Below, in pieces: positions 13,498-63,409 of a stretch of DNA of 64,000 nt. The stretch is taken from contig JAIPHX010000002.1 of assembly GCA_021734995.1 (NCBI GenBank), positions 16,189 through 80,188 of the forward strand, given 5' to 3'. The DNA is from Minisyncoccota bacterium (GTDB lineage Bacteria > Patescibacteriota > Minisyncoccia > Phycocordibacterales > UBA9973). Under the pieces are notes generated by a model. It had not been told where the DNA came from. It did no database searches and worked only from the letters and a program-made list of their open reading frames with translations. The position numbers and the translations under genes were made by a program. Each line of letters starts with the position of its first letter. Position 1 is the first letter of the stretch.

Positions 13498-13557
13498 CCT
13501 AAAAAGTTAGATAAAATCTAAAACTGCCACAAAATCACAACCCCCTAAAACATTGTG

Positions 13558-13630
13558 TCCGCCCTCTTGGGTTCGAACCAAGGACACTTCGAGTATAAGT
13601 CGAATGCTCTACCAACTGAGCTAAGGGCGG
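13558..13630 (-). tRNA. tRNA with anticodon UAU (tRNA-Ile2-like)
   Basis: 73-nt cloverleaf. Acceptor is CCGCCCT/AGGGCGG, D-arm GCUC-AGUUGGUA-GAGC, anticodon stem UUCGA/UCGAA with loop CUUAUAC, and T-arm CUUGG-UUCGAAC-CCAAG. Body is Ile-like. Confidence 0.7.
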
Positions 13631-14297
13631 AAATGATGTTCATTAACATCCTCAAAATACTTTAAACAGGCCAATATGTATTCCCATAATGGTTTGTTTC
13701 CTATTATAACACTACAAGTCCCTTTTCCAAAACCTGTTTTATATTTAACTGAAACGATTTTTGTTTTCTTTATGTATGGTTTATAAAACTGGCTTAATGG
13801 AATTTTAAGCTCTTTTCCCCAAAAATCAAGTGTCTTTGTTATATCCATATCTGAGTAAAGATGTACTTTCACTTTTAAATCTTTCTTTTTTATATTAAAC
13901 AAAGAAAGCCATTTAATAAAGAATTTTAACATTGCTGGATTTGTGTTTGTAAGAGTAACCATTGAATCTTGTTTTTTAGTTCCCTCTCCCCAATACAAAA
14001 ACAATCCTGCCAAAAATAAATCTCTTTTAGAAAAAAATCCAACATCTTTGGAAGCCTTTTCATATATCTCCAAAAATCTTTTTTCTTTTCTTTTATTAAG
14101 AGTCTTTTTATAATTTTCAATTCTTTTCCTTTTAGATTCCAATAACCCTATAGGTGATAAAGAATAATCTTGGAGCCAATAACTCAAAGTACTTTTACTA
14201 ATTTTTAGTTTTGCTTTTATTTGGCTGTATGTGTATCCAGAATTTCTCAGCTCTATCGCTCTTTTTTTATTTTTTCTTTTTTCAACTTTTTATAACT
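13621..14297 (-). CDS. HTH-containing protein with LAGLIDADG-like motif (possible degenerate homing endonuclease/transposase remnant)
   Basis: The open frame begins just after the ftsH stop. The upstream in-frame extension encodes an HTH (LRNSGYTYSQIKAKLKISKSTLSYW) but has no ATG; the first TTG is at 14187. Downstream there is an FLAGLFLYWGEG motif. The stop codon overlaps the tRNA 5' end. Confidence 0.3.
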
Positions 14298-14310: not shown

Positions 14311-17300
14311 TTATCCTGCAATATCCACAGCAGGTAAATCTTTTTTCTTTAATTCTATACCATGAGCAACTAAAATCTTTTCATATTCTTCTTGTTCAAG
14401 AGTCTCTACTTCTATGAGTTTTTTAGCAATAGCATCTAAGGTCTTACGATTTTCAGTGAGAACTTTCTCAGCAGATTTTAATCCCCCATCTACTATTTTT
14501 GATATTTCATCATCCACCTTTGCTGAAACAGCTTCAGAATATTCTTTATCTCTGGAACCCTCCCAAGCAGAACCACCTCCAGATCCCACAAGCGCAATTG
14601 GACCTATTGCATCAGACATCCCAAATCTTGTAACCATTGCTCTAGCTACATTGTTGACCATTTGCAAATCACTAGAAGGACCAGTGGTAACATCTCCAAA
14701 CACCATTTTTTCTGCTACATATCCACCTAAAGACATCGCAATATCATCAAGAAACTCTCTTTTAGACTGAAGTCTTCTGTCTTCAAGAGGAAGTTTTAAG
14801 GTATATCCTCCTGCCCTACCACGAGCAATAATAGATACTTTGTGTACTGGGTCAGAAAAAGGCAATACTGATGCTACTAGCGCATGCCCTGCTTCATGAT
14901 ATGCAGTAATTTCTTTTTCTTTTTTTGAAAGAAGATGACTTTTTCTTTCTGGCCCAAGCATTACCTTTTCTATCGCTCGGATCAAATCAAACTGAAATAC
15001 TTTTTTACGATTTTCTCTTGCAGCCAAAATAGCTCCTTCGTTCATCAATGAATATAAGTCTGCTCCAGAAAATCCAGGAGTTCGCTCTGCGATAACTTTT
15101 AAATTTATATCTTCAGCTAAAGGTTTACTGTTTGAATGAATCTTTAAAATCTCCTCCCTGTCTGCTCTATCAGGTAGATCAAGAATAACTTTTCTATCAA
15201 ATCTTCCTGGACGAACTAAAGCAGGATCTAGTACATCGGGTCTGTTGGTCGCTGCCATTACTATGATCTTTTCATTTGGTTCAAATCCATCCATCTCTAC
15301 CAAGATTTGATTGAGTGTCTGCTCTCTCTCGTCATTTCCTCCACCAAAACCACCACCACGAGTGCGTCCAATAGCATCTATTTCATCTACGAATATAATA
15401 GCGGGAGCAGATTTTTTTGCCATTTTAAATAAATCTCTTACTCTAGATGCCCCAACCCCCACAAACATTTCTACGAATTCAGATCCAGACAAATGAAAGA
15501 ACGGGACACTCGCCTCACCCGCCACTGCGCGTGCAAGCATTGTATTGTGTGAAATAAGTCCATTTGAAATAAAAGAATGTGTTTTAGGAACAGTAAAATC
15601 ATAAACCCTTGCTTTATTATTGGTAATCTCTTTTACAGGTGAAAAAAATAATTTAGCTTCTAAAATTGAATTTAGATACTCTGTATTTTCATTATGAAAT
15701 CCCATCTTTTTACATCTGTCTAAAAACAATTCCAAAGAATTTCTACTGATCGTTTTTCTTGTCTTTACTTTATGAATTAACTTTGAACACCACTCATTGC
15801 TTAATTTTCTATCACTTAACTCTTTCCATGTGTCATGCACAATATGATGTATGTCATAAAATAAATCTATGTTTGTGTTTCTTTTAGTATGTAAAGACAA
15901 ATATTTATTCATTTCTTTTTGTTTTCTAGACAAACGAAATCCTACATTTTTAGAAAACTTTTCAAGCTCTACCCCAGAAACAGTAATCTCATATACATCT
16001 TTTAAATGACTATCATCTTTATGACGTTTGATTCTTCTTTTTGGTACAATACCCATATTCAAAAGTATTGCAAATACCTGATCAGATAATTTTTTACTTA
16101 CAGTTGAGTAGCCAAAAGAATATCGATGGAAATATCCATCTGAGTCAAATAATCCTTGCAAAAATGCAATTAAAACATGTTTTGGAGCTTGCAAAACAGA
16201 AGATGGAATAGCTTTATCATATGAGAGCAAGTAACTCATTCCCATCTCATATAAATCTTTTTTCATCTTCCAAGATGTCACTAAATGAGTAATACCGTCT
16301 CCTGCTAATCCTATATTAGTATCAGGATAATTTTCTGATACATAACTTTTAAAAGAACCTACTAACTCTTCATCTACAGAGGTAAAACCAATTCTACTAG
16401 CATGGCTTAAATTTCCATCACCTGTTAGGAGTCCCATAATATAAGCTTGGTCCGAAGAAACTTCTCTTGAAACACCATATACTTCTGTCCCAAATTTAAT
16501 AGCCACGTTGTCTCCTTCTTTTATTTCTTCTAATTTTTTAAACACGAGATCCCCTTTACTATCCATTACAATTACTGGATGTTCTGGTGTTCCCTCTAAA
16601 TCAACTCCTTGTTTTAAAGTAATCTTAAAAGTATTTTGTTCGCCCAAATCATACCAGTGAGAAGCCTCTTGGTCTGTTGTACGAGAACGAGTAACATCAA
16701 AAGTGGGCAATATTGCTCCTTTTACTGTGTGATCTTTTGGATTAACCCAAAAATATTTTGGGATATCTTTAATTTCAACCAACCCTTTATTTGTTAAAAC
16801 CAAAGAATCCCCTGTAATACATTTCCCTGTTCCGGGAGCCCCTGTAAGAATTACTCCTTTTGGGATTCTTGCTCCTATCTCAAGAAATTTTTTAGGACTT
16901 TTTAGAAAATCTACTATTTCTTTTAATTCTTCTTTTGCTTCTTTGCAACCCGCTACGTCTTTGAAAGTTACTTTGTTGTTTTTGTCATTAGGATCAGTAA
17001 TGCGAGCTTTGGATTGACCAAAAGTAAAAGCTTGCATCCCTGCGCCTTTTACTTGTCTTGATAAATACCAGAAAATAAAAATAATAAAAATAATCGGTAG
17101 TAAAAATGGTAAAATATTTAAAAGCCAAAATCCTAGACCGCTCTGATCTTTAATCTCAAGAGTAGTCCCTGCTAAAGCTTCTGCGCTTACGCCATAATTT
17201 GCTAAAGTCTCAGACAAAGATGACTCTACTTCTTTTTTTGCTTTCTTTACCTCTTCATTCTTGTAAGTCACAGTAATATCTCCTCCTGAAACTACAATCT

Positions 17301-17508
17301 TCTGCACTTCTCCTGCTGTAATAGCCTTTGCTAAGTCTGAAACAGGTATCTCTTCACTTTTCTTTGAAGAATTAGCGACAAAGAGATACAAAGCAGTAAT
17401 AATCATCAAAATTAAAATAACAGAGGCCATACTGCCAGATAATCCTGGGCCTGCATTTTTTTTTCCACCCTTCTTCCCCCCTTTTTTATTTAAAATATTA
17501 AAATCCAT
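14311..17508 (-). CDS. ftsH: ATP-dependent zinc metalloprotease FtsH, interrupted by an intein (precursor)
   Basis: Two N-terminal TM helices, AAA module (Walker A GAPGTGK|T split by the intein, Walker B IIFVDEID), HEAGH zinc motif and an FtsH C-terminus. The likely start is MDFNILNKK at 17508. The mature protein is about 639 aa. Confidence 0.9.
15544..16821 (-). mobile_element. FtsH intein (426 aa, with LAGLIDADG homing-endonuclease domain)
   Basis: Begins with Cys directly after GTGK and ends ...SHN, followed by Thr, the P-loop Thr. Internal LLTGDGN and [12 protein letters not shown] dodecapeptide motifs are present. Confidence 0.8.
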
Positions 17509-17570: not shown

Positions 17571-18017
17571 ATGCCCAACTACGCAGAAAATAAAAAAGCA
17601 AGATTTGAATACGAGATTTTGGAAAAATATGAAGCTGGCATAGAGCTTACAGGAATGGAAACAAAATCCGTCCGACAAGGAAAAGCCTCTTTTGAGGGTG
17701 CTTTTGTAATTGTGCGTGGAGGAGAAGCTTTTTTAATAAATGCAAACATCACTCCTTTCCAACCCAAAAATGCTCCTGAAAATTATGATCCACTTAGAAA
17801 CAGAAAACTATTACTGACAAAAAAAGAAATCAGAGAGTTAGCTGAATCTGAGGCAAATAAAAGTTTGACAATAGTGCCTTTAACGATGTATAATAAAGGG
17901 AGAAAGATAAAGATCCAAATAGCATTGGTAAAAGGTAAGAAAAAATTTGATAAGAGAGAAACAATCAAAAAACGAGAAACCGATCGTATAATCAGAAGAA
18001 CTTTGAAAGATTACTAA
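17571..18017 (+). CDS. smpB: SsrA-binding protein SmpB
   Basis: 148-aa protein with RFEYEILEKYEAGIELTGMETKS. The start overlaps the ftsH promoter region. Confidence 0.85.
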   Translation: MPNYAENKKARFEYEILEKYEAGIELTGMETKSVRQGKASFEGAFVIVRGGEAFLINANITPFQPKNAPENYDPLRNRKLLLTKKEIRELAESEANKSLTIVPLTMYNKGRKIKIQIALVKGKKKFDKRETIKKRETDRIIRRTLKDY

Positions 18018-18041: not shown

Positions 18042-18437
18042 GGGGATGATAGGCATAGACAAGAGTCTTGTTTATCTGAATGCATGTCGAGAATGAACGT
18101 AATCTCGCTAAACTTCGTTCAAAACGTTAATTGCAAAATTGACTTCAAAAGTAAAGGCAATCACTTCTCCATACTTCGGTATGCAGGATTTTGCTTTTGC
18201 TCCAGCACGCGCTTAAGTGGGCTGGTGTCTTTCTCGTAGACTTCCGATATACGAAGAGAGGCATAATATTATCGGGATAGGAAAAGAAACTTCCCACTCT
18301 TCTTCCAAAACTTAGGGAATCGTTTGAAAAATATTTTGCTTACTTTATAATTTTTCAAACTAAACATAAGGTAAGACACACATGTAGAAATTCAAATATC
18401 AACCTTTTGCACGGGGATTCAATTTCCCCCATCTCCA
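18042..18437 (+). ncRNA. ssrA: tmRNA (ssrA)
   Basis: Lies immediately downstream of smpB. The 5' GGGGAUG pairs with the 3' CAUCUCC to form the acceptor stem. The T-arm is GGGGA-UUCAAUU-UCCCC, with discriminator A. A candidate internal tag ORF ends at TAA (18214-18216). Confidence 0.7.
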
Positions 18438-19962
18438 CATCAAGGGTATGACCAGCCTCAATTCGGTCAAATAGCTTATAAAGACAGGACTTTTCAGGGG
18501 TTCGATAACCCATTTCATGTACAAAGACAATTTTGTCATCAAACATGAAAGAGAAAAGCTCCTGTTTTTGCTTTACGGTCCCTTTTTCCCATATTTTATA
18601 AGGGCTTTTTATCATGCCCGTTATCTGATCATACGAAGTTCGATAAGGAATAACGTAGTCAATTTCTTTACCTAGTTTTTCCTCTATTTTCTCTAACTCA
18701 ATAGATTTTTCTTCAATTCTTTTCTGATAGCTTCTTTTCACTATCAGATTTTCTATTCCAATCGACTCATCTGCCAAACCGCCGATCTCCTCTTCAAGTT
18801 TACTTTTCTGTTTAATTAACAATTCCGATTGTTTACCAATTCCTTTTATTTCGTCATTCCATAAATCTTCAAACATCATCCCAACAATACCCACTAAGTC
18901 TGATTTAGGTTTATTATCTTTTACAAGTTTCTTAAATCCATCATCAATGTCCTTTTGCTTCACAGTCTTACTTCTCAATGCACACGATCGATACTGACAT
19001 GAATAATACGGGTGACGCTTACCAGTTTTACTTCTAGAATAATAAGCAGTCATCTTTCTGCCACATTCTGAACAGCAAACTAATCCTCTTAATGGAAACT
19101 CTTCTCGGATATCTTGCCTGATTACCGCATCTCTAGCTTCGCCATTAATTCTTTTCACATTTGCAAAATAAACCTCTTCAGAAATTACACCTTCGTGTTT
19201 GCCTTTCTGTCTTCTTACATCCCACTTCTCATATTCAATAAAACCAGCATAAAAAGGATCAAGAAGAAGTTTCTTTGTTGTCTCTAAGTATTTCTCAGCG
19301 TGACATTTTTTAGAAAAGAAACCTTTCTCCTGGAGAAATCTAGCAAGATCGATAATCCTTACAAACCGCTTATAGGCAAAACCTTCTAAGCCTTCCTTTA
19401 AGATTAATCCTGCACTATTTGGAAAACATGTGTTTCCATATTCAGTTCTACGCATCTCATAACCTTTAGGGGCATGGAAAGCCCAATAACCCCTCTCTAG
19501 ACGAGCCTTTTGCTTTTGAATAACTTGTCTCTTGTTCTGGTTCCTTTCAAGCTCTGCTCCTGCGGCAAGTATCACTTCTACATACTGACCTTCAGGACTT
19601 TCATCAAAGCTGAAATTCAAACACTCAGGCACAATCCCTCGTGTTCTAAATGCCGTTCTAAGTTTTAAGTGGAACTCGACATCTCGAGCAAAACGTTTAA
19701 GATTGTCAAAAACAACAACGAAATTATGATGAGGTTTTGAGTCTACGTATTCAAGAAGAGATCGCATTGCTGGTCGTGCCATAAAGTCTCCTCCACCTGT
19801 AAAGCTATCTTTAAAGACCTTTGTAGGCTCGCCATACCCCCTATTAACACAATAAGTGCGACATCTCTGTTCCTGAGACTCTAAACCACCACCTTCACGC
19901 ATTTGGCGCTCTGATGAGACACGGCAATATATGATTGGTATTCGTTTAATTTCTTCTTTCAT
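18355..19962 (-). CDS. Large serine recombinase (integrase)
   Basis: N-terminal resolvase catalytic domain (YCRVSSERQ), a recombinase domain and a Zn-ribbon (CSECGRKM...YYSCQ) with a coiled-coil C-terminal region. The last ~27 codons overlap the tmRNA 3' portion. Confidence 0.85.
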   Translation of the reverse strand: MKEEIKRIPIIYCRVSSERQMREGGGLESQEQRCRTYCVNRGYGEPTKVFKDSFTGGGDFMARPAMRSLLEYVDSKPHHNFVVVFDNLKRFARDVEFHLKLRTAFRTRGIVPECLNFSFDESPEGQYVEVILAAGAELERNQNKRQVIQKQKARLERGYWAFHAPKGYEMRRTEYGNTCFPNSAGLILKEGLEGFAYKRFVRIIDLARFLQEKGFFSKKCHAEKYLETTKKLLLDPFYAGFIEYEKWDVRRQKGKHEGVISEEVYFANVKRINGEARDAVIRQDIREEFPLRGLVCCSECGRKMTAYYSRSKTGKRHPYYSCQYRSCALRSKTVKQKDIDDGFKKLVKDNKPKSDLVGIVGMMFEDLWNDEIKGIGKQSELLIKQKSKLEEEIGGLADESIGIENLIVKRSYQKRIEEKSIELEKIEEKLGKEIDYVIPYRTSYDQITGMIKSPYKIWEKGTVKQKQELFSFMFDDKIVFVHEMGYRTPEKSCLYKLFDRIEAGHTLDVEMGEIESPCKRLIFEFLHVCLTLCLV

Positions 19963-22002: not shown

Positions 22003-22140
22003 TAATAAAATACTTTTGGGCAGACAAAAAGCCCGCCGCCAAGCTGATGGTCCGAGGACCACCCATGCCCGTTTCCAGACATGACTCGCTACAAGCAACC
22101 CTGACGACGGGTTCTTTATCTTGTAGCGAGTTTTGCAACC
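22003..22140 (-). ncRNA. GC-rich structured leader / putative small RNA upstream of the bPH gene
   Basis: The ACTCGCTACAA motif occurs three times, twice direct and once inverted, so two mutually exclusive 11-12-bp stems are possible. There are additional GC hairpins (GGTCC..GGACC, GGGC..GCCC). GC content is far above the local background. Confidence 0.3.
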
Positions 22141-22210
22141 ATATCCTTTTGTGTTTACACAAAAGGGGTTAGGTCGACTGATATTCAGTTGTAATTCTAT
22201 TTTAACATAA

Positions 22211-61231: not shown

Positions 61232-63409
61232 ATGGCAAAAAAAACCAAAAACGAGCCTAAGGACGAAGCAAAAGAGGCCGAAAAAAATACCGCAAAAAAA
61301 GAATCTGCGGGTGCTTCAATATTAAACGACACACTGAAAGCTCTTCAAGCAAAATTTGGAGAAGGCTCTATTATGAAGCTAGGTGATACTCCAAAAGTAA
61401 ACATCAACGCAATTCCTACGGGTTCTATGGGCTTAGATATGGCTCTTGGAGTAGGAGGAATCCCAAGAGGAAGAATTATAGAGATATTTGGACCAGAGTC
61501 ATCTGGAAAGACTACTCTTTCTCTACATATAGTAGCTGAAGCTCAAAAATTAGGAGGAGTGTGTGCATATATAGATGCAGAACACGCAATGGACCCAGAC
61601 TATACAAAAAAACTAGGAGTAAACATAAGTGAACTTCTAATTTCCCAGCCAGACACAGGAGAGCAAGCTTTGGAAATAGTAGAAAGCTTGGTGCGAACAG
61701 GAAAAATAGATGTGATAGTCATAGACTCCGTCGCTGCTCTTACTCCAAAAGATGAGATAGAGGGCGATATGGGTGCATATCACGTAGGAAAGCAAGCAAG
61801 ACTAATGTCTCAAGCTCTTCGTAAACTTACTGCTATTGTGGCTAGATCTAAAACCGTAGTTATATTCATCAATCAAATCAGAATGCAGATAGGCGTTATG
61901 TTCGGTTGCTTTTCTTATGACACAAAAATTATGCTAGCGAATGGCAAGAAAGAAAAAATTGGTACTATTGTAAACCAAACAAAAAAAGTAAAAGTTTTAT
62001 CTTATAATTTTGAAAAAAAATGTGTTGAAGAAAAAATGATTACAGATTGGCATATAAATGGTGAAACAGATAGTTTTTTACAATTTTTTATCCAAAATCA
62101 TACAGGAAATGGAAGGAGGGGGTTTTCTTGTACTCCAGATCATAAAATATATACACCTTATGGATGGAAAAAAGCTAAAGAACTAAAAGAGGGAGATGAA
62201 GTTTCTGTAAATATTACCGATACTTCTTTGACTGCTCAACAAGAGGAAATAATTATTGGCTCTTTGCTTGGTGATGGTAATATAAAAATGAATAATGAAC
62301 AAACTGCATATTTCAGAGAAGAACATGGGCCAAAACAAAAAGAATATGTCTCATGGTTGAGCAAAGAACTAGGTGATATCACAAGCAATGTTAATTTAAA
62401 CACAAGTAGAGACAACGCTATTGTAGAGACTAAGCATCTATTGAGAATAGGAGATTTATATGGATTGTTTTATCCTCAAAATAAAAAAATTGTCCCAGAA
62501 TTTTTAGTAGAACAAATAACACCAAGAATGATAGCTCTGTGGTATTGCGGTGATGGTACTCTACAAGGTGGCTATTCCAACTGGAAAGAAAAAAATTACA
62601 AAAGGACACCAAGAGCAACCCTTTATGCGAATGCATTTGGTGATGACCCTTTGAATGTTGACAGAATAGACAGAATGTTTAAAAAATTTAATATTAAAAC
62701 ATCCTGGAGAAAATGTGGGGTCTACAAAGTGCTTAATTTTAATGTTAAAGAATCTGAAAAATTCTTTGAGTTAATCTCCCCTTTTATTCCTAAAGTAATG
62801 GAATACAAACTTCCAGAAAAATATAAAGGAAGATATCATCAAACAAACGCAAACCAATCAGTTCAAAGCCAAATACTGAGAGGAATGAGAATAAAAAGTA
62901 TTCAGACAAGAATTCCATATCAAAATGGAGAAAGAATTAGCAAACAAAGATTTGATATTAGTGTAGCTGACAACCATAATTACTTTGTAGATGGCTGTTT
63001 GGTAAGCAACTCACCAGAAACTACCCCTGGAGGTAAAGCTCTTAAGTTTTACACTTCCGTCAGATTAGATATTCGCAGAACAGCTCAAATTAAAAAAGGA
63101 GAAGAGGTGGTAGGCTCTCGTACCAAAGTAAAAGTAGTCAAAAACAAAGTCGCCTCCCCTTTCAAACAAACTGAGTTTGATATTATTTACGGAGAAGGTA
63201 TTTCAAGAGAGGGTGAGCTAATCGCTCTTGGTGAAAAATATAAAATTCTAGATAAAAGCGGTTCTTCATATTCATACAAACCAGAAGTAGGAGAAGATAT
63301 GAAGCTTGGCAGAGGTTATGACGCTACTCGTACTTTTCTAAAAGAAAATCCTAAGGTTGCCGACCAAATCATGAAAGAAATCCGCAAAAAGTTTGCAGAA
63401 GAAGCCTAA
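61232..63409 (+). CDS. recA: Recombinase RecA, interrupted by an intein (precursor)
   Basis: GPESSGKTT Walker A and [15 protein letters not shown]|...|[23 protein letters not shown]. The mature protein is 357 aa. Confidence 0.9.
61907..63010 (+). mobile_element. RecA intein (368 aa, LAGLIDADG type) at the RecA-b (MFG/SPE) site
   Basis: Begins with Cys after VMFG and ends ...LVSN, followed by Ser. Dodecapeptide motifs [10 protein letters not shown] and [10 protein letters not shown] are present. Confidence 0.8.

Follow-up and report, generated by a model that had tools for sequence, protein, structure and literature searches.

Known P-loop inteins and the FtsH element

Inteins that interrupt their host protein between the invariant lysine and the nucleophilic threonine of the Walker-A P-loop represent the 'classic' P-loop insertion (Kelley et al., 2016, PMC5050341), and Topilina et al. 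(2015, PMC4513877) and Novikova et al. (2016, PMC4760082) give this loop as the most common intein site. Hosts named in these papers include DnaB, MCM, RFC, RadA/RecA, PhoH, UvrD, TerL and the AAA+ protease LonB, for which 10 inteins are listed in Euryarchaeota (Table 2 in PMC4760082). Here we describe a 426-amino acid (aa) insertion at the corresponding position of ftsH in a 64,000-nucleotide stretch of DNA (the window) from a Minisyncoccota metagenome-assembled genome (MAG; GCA_021734995.1, contig JAIPHX010000002.1, positions 16,189 to 80,188). We regard it with high confidence as a class-1 LAGLIDADG intein at the classic P-loop position of a housekeeping ftsH in a Paceibacteria/Nomurabacteria-like host of the candidate phyla radiation (CPR). 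FtsH has 0 occurrences in the main text of the Novikova survey, supplementary tables apart (PMC4760082). The literature searched contained no paper describing an FtsH intein, and where inteins were mentioned together with FtsH, CPR or Patescibacteria, other inteins were concerned, e.g., those of PolB and RPB2. What is new is FtsH as a host-gene allele family; the kind of element and the type of site are thoroughly known, and no new mechanism is involved.

The Pyrococcus horikoshii RadA intein (Pho RadA; 4e2u) and the P-loop inteins DnaB-b, MCM-a, RFC-a and TerL1-a are inserted at the same Lys|Thr/Ser site as the window intein and share its Cys1...His-Asn|Thr+1 chemistry. In sequence, the window intein directly resembles the one of Pho RadA (E 3.6e-5) and the intein stretch in NCBIfam models of the RFC small subunit, with which it aligns from the P-loop on. 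These comparison hosts are replication and recombination enzymes, whereas FtsH is a membrane-anchored AAA+ protease. Besides, the Pho RadA intein, for which conditional splicing has been shown, is a mini-intein lacking an endonuclease, whereas the window intein is of full length. The best structure and sequence matches were PI-PfuI, the P. furiosus RIR1 intein (1dq3; phmmer E 1.3e-9), and the Thermococcus litoralis VMA intein (TliVMA; 7qss). In both, as in the window intein, a LAGLIDADG endonuclease with two motifs and an additional region for DNA binding interrupts the Hint domain, but they are merely 19-20% identical to it and reside in archaeal hosts at other genes and sites (ribonucleotide reductase and V-ATPase subunit A). 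PI-SceI, the yeast VMA1 intein and prototype of a bifunctional intein and homing endonuclease, showed a fold match (Foldseek E ~1e-11), but it is eukaryotic, inserted at another site and only 13-14% identical. Its second dodecapeptide motif presumably resembles that of the window intein. A precedent for an intein in an AAA+ P-loop protease is found in the archaeal LonB inteins, although LonB belongs to another protease family and another domain of life.

The ftsH precursor gene is an open reading frame (ORF) on the minus strand (14311..17508) that starts with ATG (MDFNIL...) and comprises 1065 codons and a stop, as shown by the ORF listing and its translation. The encoded 1065-aa protein contains the Pfam domains FtsH_ext (extracellular), AAA, AAA_lid_3 and Peptidase_M41, of which the AAA domain is split, and it matched TIGR01241 (FtsH_fam, 751 bits) in two stretches. 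An identical sequence annotated as FtsH is present in NCBI (P0032), and the same protein was recovered from the Logan assemblies SRR12088350 and SRR12088351, both independent, in addition to the NCBI MAG. The N-extein (229 aa; 16822..17508, minus strand) contains two hydrophobic transmembrane segments, which is the usual FtsH topology, a periplasmic domain and the first portion of the AAA domain up to Walker-A GAPGTGK. It is followed by the intein (15544..16821, minus strand; exactly 426 codons, precursor residues 230-655), whose first residue is Cys1 and whose last two are His425-Asn426, and by the C-extein (410 aa and stop; 14311..15543, minus strand), which starts with the Walker-A Thr (Thr+1, Thr656) and contains the remaining AAA part, the lid and the M41 protease.

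Translation confirmed to the base the coordinates and length given for the insertion in a preliminary description of this DNA, as well as its proposed boundaries: the junctions read GAPGTGK|C...SHN|TMLARAV, with Cys230 directly after Lys229 and Asn655 followed by the P-loop residue Thr656. The location in the Walker-A P-loop was likewise borne out by alignment to solved structures. The N-extein aligned with Thermotoga maritima FtsH up to K210 and the C-extein from T211 to residue 605, so that the break falls at K210|T211 of structure 7tdo; the equivalent position in Escherichia coli FtsH is K198|T199, with the alignment resuming at residue 199. The insertion is thus placed between the Walker-A Lys and Thr, with the Thr as +1 nucleophile, which corresponds to the published definition of a 'classic' P-loop insertion (PMC5050341). 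Excision of the intein in silico gave an FtsH of 639 aa, the size that had been predicted, and this spliced sequence was alignable to intein-less orthologues at standard length, showing 79-82% identity over 95-100% of the length to 119 proteins.

The 426-aa segment matched Pfam Intein_splicing (65.7 bits, cut-off 35.8), TIGR01445 intein_Nterm (above cut-off, intein residues 1-85) and TIGR01443 intein_Cterm (31.9 bits, cut-off 15.6, residues 406-426), and showed long alignments to the intein parts of NCBIfam models for intein-containing GyrA, DnaB, RFC, IF-2 and ribonucleotide reductase. The profile search proposed in the preliminary description therefore gave Pfam and NCBIfam intein models above their cut-offs. 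The N-terminal splicing (Hint) region (intein residues 1-118; 16468..16821, minus strand) contains block A with Cys1 and block B, and shows beta strands in the structure model described below; the C-terminal splicing region (residues 391-426; 15544..15651, minus strand) contains block F and block G (NGLISHN). In an alignment of the window intein with 17 homologues (A1), the blocks were found in the order A (Cys1), B (LEGT78PEH81), C (GLLTGD135G), D (K203-x-x-P206, invariant), E (GLFDSD228G, invariant), H (LLNMG), F (ending ...415SF) and G (NGLISH425N426, then Thr+1), and the C-terminal region was conserved. Cys1 was kept in every homologue covering the N-terminus, and the TPEH of block B (T78-P-E-H81; 16579-16590, minus strand) in most rows covering it, the exceptions being P0023 (TYNH) and P0002 (TYEH). 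Other boundaries, or a domain insertion lacking Hint blocks, had been named as possible grounds for rejecting an intein, but the Cys...His-Asn/Thr bounds and blocks A, B, F and G were all found to be present.

An AlphaFold2 model based on A1 had a mean predicted local distance difference test (pLDDT) score of 92 and a predicted template modelling (TM) score of 0.91. Foldseek matches to it in the PDB included the intein crystal structures 1dq3, 7qss, 2cw7, 1lws, 1am2 and 4oz6, the best being PI-PfuI (1dq3, E 5e-24), TliVMA (7qss, TM 0.69), PI-PkoII and PI-SceI. Sequence and model thus support the insertion as a canonical full-length class-1 intein, as every defining feature that could be tested was found in it, and it is very probably competent for splicing. 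A transposon or insertion sequence was considered for the same segment and rejected; neither terminal inverted repeats nor target-site duplications were found at 15544 or 16821, where only short AT-rich chance matches were seen.

In the window ftsH lies in the order smpB-ftsH-recG, with smpB at 17571..18017, and no second ftsH was found within the 64 kb. By synteny, the gene is orthologous to the one housekeeping ftsH that relatives possess. FtsH is essential in E. coli. Judging from this synteny, splicing would be obligatory for an essential protease, as had been suggested earlier.

Endonuclease domain and proposed splicing and homing

The LAGLIDADG endonuclease together with a C-terminal helical region occupies intein residues 119-390 (15652..16467, minus strand), an assignment supported by Pfam matches, A1, the fold and substitution patterns. 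The segment matched LAGLIDADG_3 (58.2 bits, cut-off 22.5, 1e-15) and Hom_end (24.8 bits, cut-off 21.1, 2.5e-5). Both dodecapeptide motifs noted in the preliminary description are present on the minus strand: motif 1 (GLLTGDG, with D135) at intein residues 130-136 (16414-16434) and motif 2 (containing GLFDSD228G) at residues 220-231 (16129-16164). The lysine of block D is K203. In A1, K203, D226, D228, G130 and G136 were invariant, and D135 was present in all rows covering it except for two evidently degenerate relatives, P0026 and P0029, in which Asn replaces the Asp of motif 1; Daviesbacteria alleles have DTDAS in motif 2. The central domain alone matched I-DmoI and I-Tsp061I in Foldseek (target-normalised TM 0.63-0.73), and in the model the predicted endonuclease core has the pseudo-dimeric alpha-beta-beta-alpha-beta-beta-alpha fold. 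The C-terminal helical region probably has a role in DNA recognition.

Selection was assessed by pairwise comparison with the nearest allele for which DNA was available, P0272 at locus L084, whose intein is 70% identical. The endonuclease region (residues 119-390) had a proportion of nonsynonymous differences (pN) of 0.21 and of synonymous differences (pS) of 0.74, and no indels. The corresponding values were 0.19 and 0.74 for the N-extein and 0.13-0.17 and 0.70-0.75 for the Hint regions, and pN was 0.11 for the C-extein, for which the synonymous rate (dS) was undefined. A quantitative dN/dS ratio was dropped, as it is unreliable with saturated synonymous sites. These values indicate purifying selection on the endonuclease region, since neutral decay would look different. 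Because its catalytic residues are conserved and it appears to be under purifying selection, the homing endonuclease is probably intact, and that it is active at present seems somewhat more plausible than that it is not.

A class-1 pathway is proposed here, since the element has the residues on which the standard pathway depends. The 1065-aa precursor would be translated and anchored to the membrane via the N-extein, and splicing would take place while it is tethered. An N-S acyl shift at Lys229-Cys230 would be followed by transesterification, in which the Thr656 hydroxyl attacks the thioester, by cyclisation of Asn655 and by an O-N shift that would join GAPGTGK to TMLARAV and yield active FtsH of 639 aa. 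An AAA domain whose Walker-A loop is split by 426 residues cannot bind ATP; the precursor should therefore be inactive before splicing. The freed intein would then act as a site-specific DNA endonuclease, cutting intein-less ftsH at the sequence coding for the P-loop, and the cut allele would be repaired with the intein copied in. Such homing would account for a patchy distribution of the intein.

The presumed homing site is obtained by joining the extein flanks of 30 nt each (16822-16851 and 15514-15543; span 15514..16851, minus strand), which gives ATTCTTACAGGGGCTCCCGGAACAGGGAAA|ACAATGCTTGCACGCGCAGTGGCGGGTGAG. The uninterrupted counterpart in the intein-less locus L083 (GCA_039739955.1) reads ATTCTAACTGGAGCGCCGGGTACTGGAAAA|ACTCTGCTTGCTCGCGCAGTGGCAGGGGAA. 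The joined flank sequence is the likely target of the endonuclease.

Distribution of FtsH inteins and rival explanations

A homologue scan covering one genome per GTDB species gave 80 loci with related full-length inteins, of which 33 (L001-L033) have ftsH as host. All 33 are inserted at the same site, with junctions G-x-G-K|C...HN|T; ftsH genes with a single intein comprised 1,050-1,128 codons. The alleles were found mostly in CPR/Patescibacteria, i.e., in Kuenenbacteria, Liptonbacteria, Vogelbacteria, Amesbacteria, Daviesbacteria, Woesebacteria (including the closed chromosome CP011214.1), Blackburnbacteria, Kerfeldbacteria, Nomurabacteria, Ryanbacteria, Levyibacteriota, Saccharibacteria and Paceibacterota. 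Several were found in Acidobacteriota, one of them in a closed 4.27-Mb Pyrinomonadaceae chromosome (OZ244585.1, L004). When 1.84 billion cluster representatives were searched exhaustively, 314 proteins reached E<=1e-30, and the closest full-length allele was P0272, a 1067-aa FtsH with an intein of likewise 426 aa. In a neighbour-joining tree of 77 of the related inteins, elements grouped by host gene and all FtsH inteins formed one clade, within which the window intein was placed with alleles from Saccharibacteria, Kuenenbacteria and Acidobacteriota. By sequence, the FtsH P-loop inteins in the databases, 33-70% identical to the window intein, are true alleles of the window element. Their entries are unannotated or named generically ('AAA family ATPase', 'hypothetical protein', 'FtsH').

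The spliced 639-aa FtsH was used as a query and the best 120 matches were examined. Apart from the window's own protein, these 119 matches were 620-681 aa long, without insertion, and 79-82% identical to the query. The exteins of P0272, 69% and 84% identical to those of the window (~79% overall when weighted by length), fall in the same range of divergence as these intein-less orthologues, yet P0272 is intein-bearing. The uninterrupted ftsH of L083 adjoins smpB and recG, and the intein-bearing ftsH of P0272 has the same smpB-ftsH-recG setting as the window. This is therefore the same housekeeping orthologue, with intein presence varying among similarly related lineages. Among the ftsH loci, the most similar exteins were those of L029 (Nomurabacteria; 69/88%) and L032 (68/82%), but their inteins were just 34-35% identical to that of the window, whereas inteins 54-58% identical were found in Kuenenbacteria, Saccharibacteria, Liptonbacteria and Acidobacteriota with exteins of 40-47% and 53-60% identity. 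Intein and extein identity showed a Spearman rho of -0.28 (n=24). Intein similarity is thus decoupled from host similarity, and the distribution is sporadic and host-incongruent.

Several points weigh against the reading of the element as a splicing intein with an active, mobile endonuclease. Splicing, cleavage, homing and present-day mobility are all inferred from sequences. As a +1 residue, Thr has lower reactivity than Cys or Ser, and splicing could consequently be slow or conditional. The pN/pS contrast is qualitative, as synonymous sites are saturated (pS 0.70-0.80) in the sole usable pair, and the tree was built without bootstrap support values. The GC content of FtsH inteins matched that of the host in every lineage examined (0.28-0.55), with 0.310 for the window intein against a window mean of 0.332, which indicates long residence with no sign of recent transfer and leaves current mobility uncertain. 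A GC dip over the intein was considered as evidence of recent import and rejected, since it reflects the unusually GC-rich, highly conserved C-extein.

The amelioration of GC to each host would also fit an intein that still splices but whose endonuclease is inactive, i.e., a fixed, vertically inherited and immobile passenger. The syntenic P0272 allele of the same length is consistent with vertical descent in this lineage, and some related P-loop inteins (P0026, P0029 and the Daviesbacteria alleles) show a clear loss of catalytic residues. The window copy, however, keeps D135, K203, D228 and both Gly-rich motifs, and pN is far below pS without indels over ~30% protein divergence, whereas one would expect a dead domain to have decayed or shrunk to a mini-intein. 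Together with the patchy, host-incongruent distribution, which favours transfer events, this makes an inactive endonuclease rather unlikely, if still a serious alternative. Co-option of the intein as a conditional switch, with splicing and FtsH activity responding to temperature, redox, metals or ATP demand, appears improbable. Conditional splicing of P-loop inteins is documented, and their adaptive retention argued for, in the literature (PMC4513877, PMC6195587, PMC4760082), and such a role has likewise been proposed for the P-loop inteins of P. horikoshii RadA and mycobacterial DnaB; that divergent relatives have kept the intein in a single-copy housekeeping orthologue would fit it as well. 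No sequence feature specific to regulation was seen in the element, though, 119 of the 120 closest FtsH orthologues lack the intein, and an intact endonuclease is better explained by selfish maintenance. A wider form of this idea, which we consider doubtful, holds that the FtsH intein is more than a selfish passenger. In those CPR lineages whose only housekeeping ftsH retains it, the intein would conditionally control, after translation, both the assembly and the ATPase activity of FtsH in the membrane-tethered precursor. It would belong to a P-loop-specialised lineage, which may comprise the inteins of FtsH, UvrD, PhoH, MutS, DnaB, RadA/Sms, RuvB and the MetK loop GGGAF|SGKD, and FtsH would be a previously unrecorded multi-site host with regulatory inteins; at least three further ftsH insertion sites were seen in MAGs beside the P-loop.

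Another alternative is that the insertion is a non-splicing Hint domain, or the gene a pseudogene with a defective intein, and that FtsH function is provided from elsewhere in the genome; a second ftsH could lie outside the 64 kb in view. This is very improbable, as the reading frame has no interruption over its 1065 codons, every residue needed for splicing catalysis is intact, and C1, HN and T+1 are kept in all 33 other alleles. Moreover, the exteins are 79-84% identical to orthologues of functional length, the C-extein has the low pN given above, and the gene sits in the smpB-ftsH-recG order that is conserved around the housekeeping copy. That the sequence comes from a MAG could also raise the suspicion of an assembly chimera or sequencing artefact, but the identical protein occurs in three assemblies (the NCBI MAG and two Logan Sequence Read Archive runs) and the same architecture in at least 33 other genomes, including the closed chromosomes, so that an artefact is hardly conceivable. 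The reading of the element as a splicing-competent P-loop intein adds FtsH, a membrane protease of quality control, to the intein hosts, which in published surveys are dominated by enzymes of replication, recombination and repair, and it provides a further case of inteins at the Walker-A Lys|Thr. The family of FtsH inteins occurs widely among uncultivated Patescibacteria and Acidobacteriota; it is old, diverse, host-incongruent and unremarked in annotation. A precursor whose N-extein would hold it at the membrane during splicing could serve the study or engineering of conditional protein splicing. For annotation, MAG ftsH genes of ~1,050-1,580 codons should be read as intein-bearing and not as fused or mis-assembled.

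In addition to the ftsH alleles, the scan gave 47 loci (L034-L080) with inteins 24-33% identical over the full length, located either at Lys|Thr-Ser of PhoH, UvrD-like helicases, MutS, DnaB, RadA/Sms and RuvB or in the phosphate loop (GGGAF|C...CHN|SGKD) of the S-adenosylmethionine synthetase MetK from DPANN archaea, Saccharibacteria and Omnitrophota. Four ftsH genes of 1404-1582 codons (L006, L010, L026 and L033) contained a second intein beside the P-loop one. In L006 and L033 it adjoins the FVGVG stretch (VGVGA|S...LLHN|SRVRD), and in L010 it lies (NAP|C...THN|CIIFIDE) just before IIFIDEID, which we take to be Walker B; in L026 the further insertion is located around AATN, presumably sensor-1, close to residue 340 of the window FtsH after splicing. 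Given these further insertions, FtsH is a multi-site intein host. Many FtsH-intein entries were split or truncated within the intein, e.g., P0005 and P0008 (Daviesbacteria), of which the first stops and the second begins inside the same intein, with a change of frame. Such entries point to frameshifts, breaks in assembly or difficulties of gene calling at these loci, and intein-bearing ftsH is therefore probably under-annotated in MAGs.

Other features of the window

A six-frame translation of the window was scanned with profiles for more inteins, and one was found, in recA, the other weak matches being noise. This recA (61232..63409, plus strand; 725 aa) contains a 368-aa intein at 61907..63010 with the junctions GVMFG|CFSYDTK...CLVSN|SPETTPGG. 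Its endonuclease is of the LAGLIDADG_2 family (Pfam, 1.8e-23), whereas Intein_splicing matched weakly and sub-threshold (31.9 bits, cut-off 35.8), and the penultimate residue of the intein is Ser instead of the usual His.

Directly downstream of ftsH lies a 188-aa ORF (13621..14187, minus strand; stop-to-stop 13624..14289), which was considered as a free-standing LAGLIDADG partner of the intein. This was rejected, as LAGLIDADG_3 was sub-threshold (E 0.04), the ORF belongs to a helix-turn-helix (HTH) family instead, and no link to the intein was found. The family is very large (839 clusters in Paceibacteria), and its members are typically 218-224 aa long with HTH_23 at the N-terminus. The first ATG/GTG/TTG of the window copy comes only after the HTH part, and the gene therefore has a non-canonical start or an N-terminal truncation. 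L083 has an ORF at the corresponding position, but the two are not homologous. The stop of the 188-aa ORF overlaps by ~10 nt the 5′ end of a tRNA-Ile predicted by ARAGORN with anticodon UAU (13557..13630, minus strand). Most bacteria decode AUA with a lysidine-modified CAU tRNA, and a tRNA-Ile with UAU would be unusual.

On the other side of ftsH, a transfer-messenger RNA (tmRNA) gene was found at 18042..18440 on the plus strand (Rfam, 116.9 bits). Its 3′ end is overlapped by a large serine recombinase ORF (18355..19962, minus strand; 535 aa) with Resolvase and Zn_ribbon_recom domains, which suggests a mobile element integrated at ssrA, adjoining smpB. A LOOT RNA motif (RF03000) was found as a full-length match at 22046..22175 on the minus strand (79.8 bits, gathering score 46.4).

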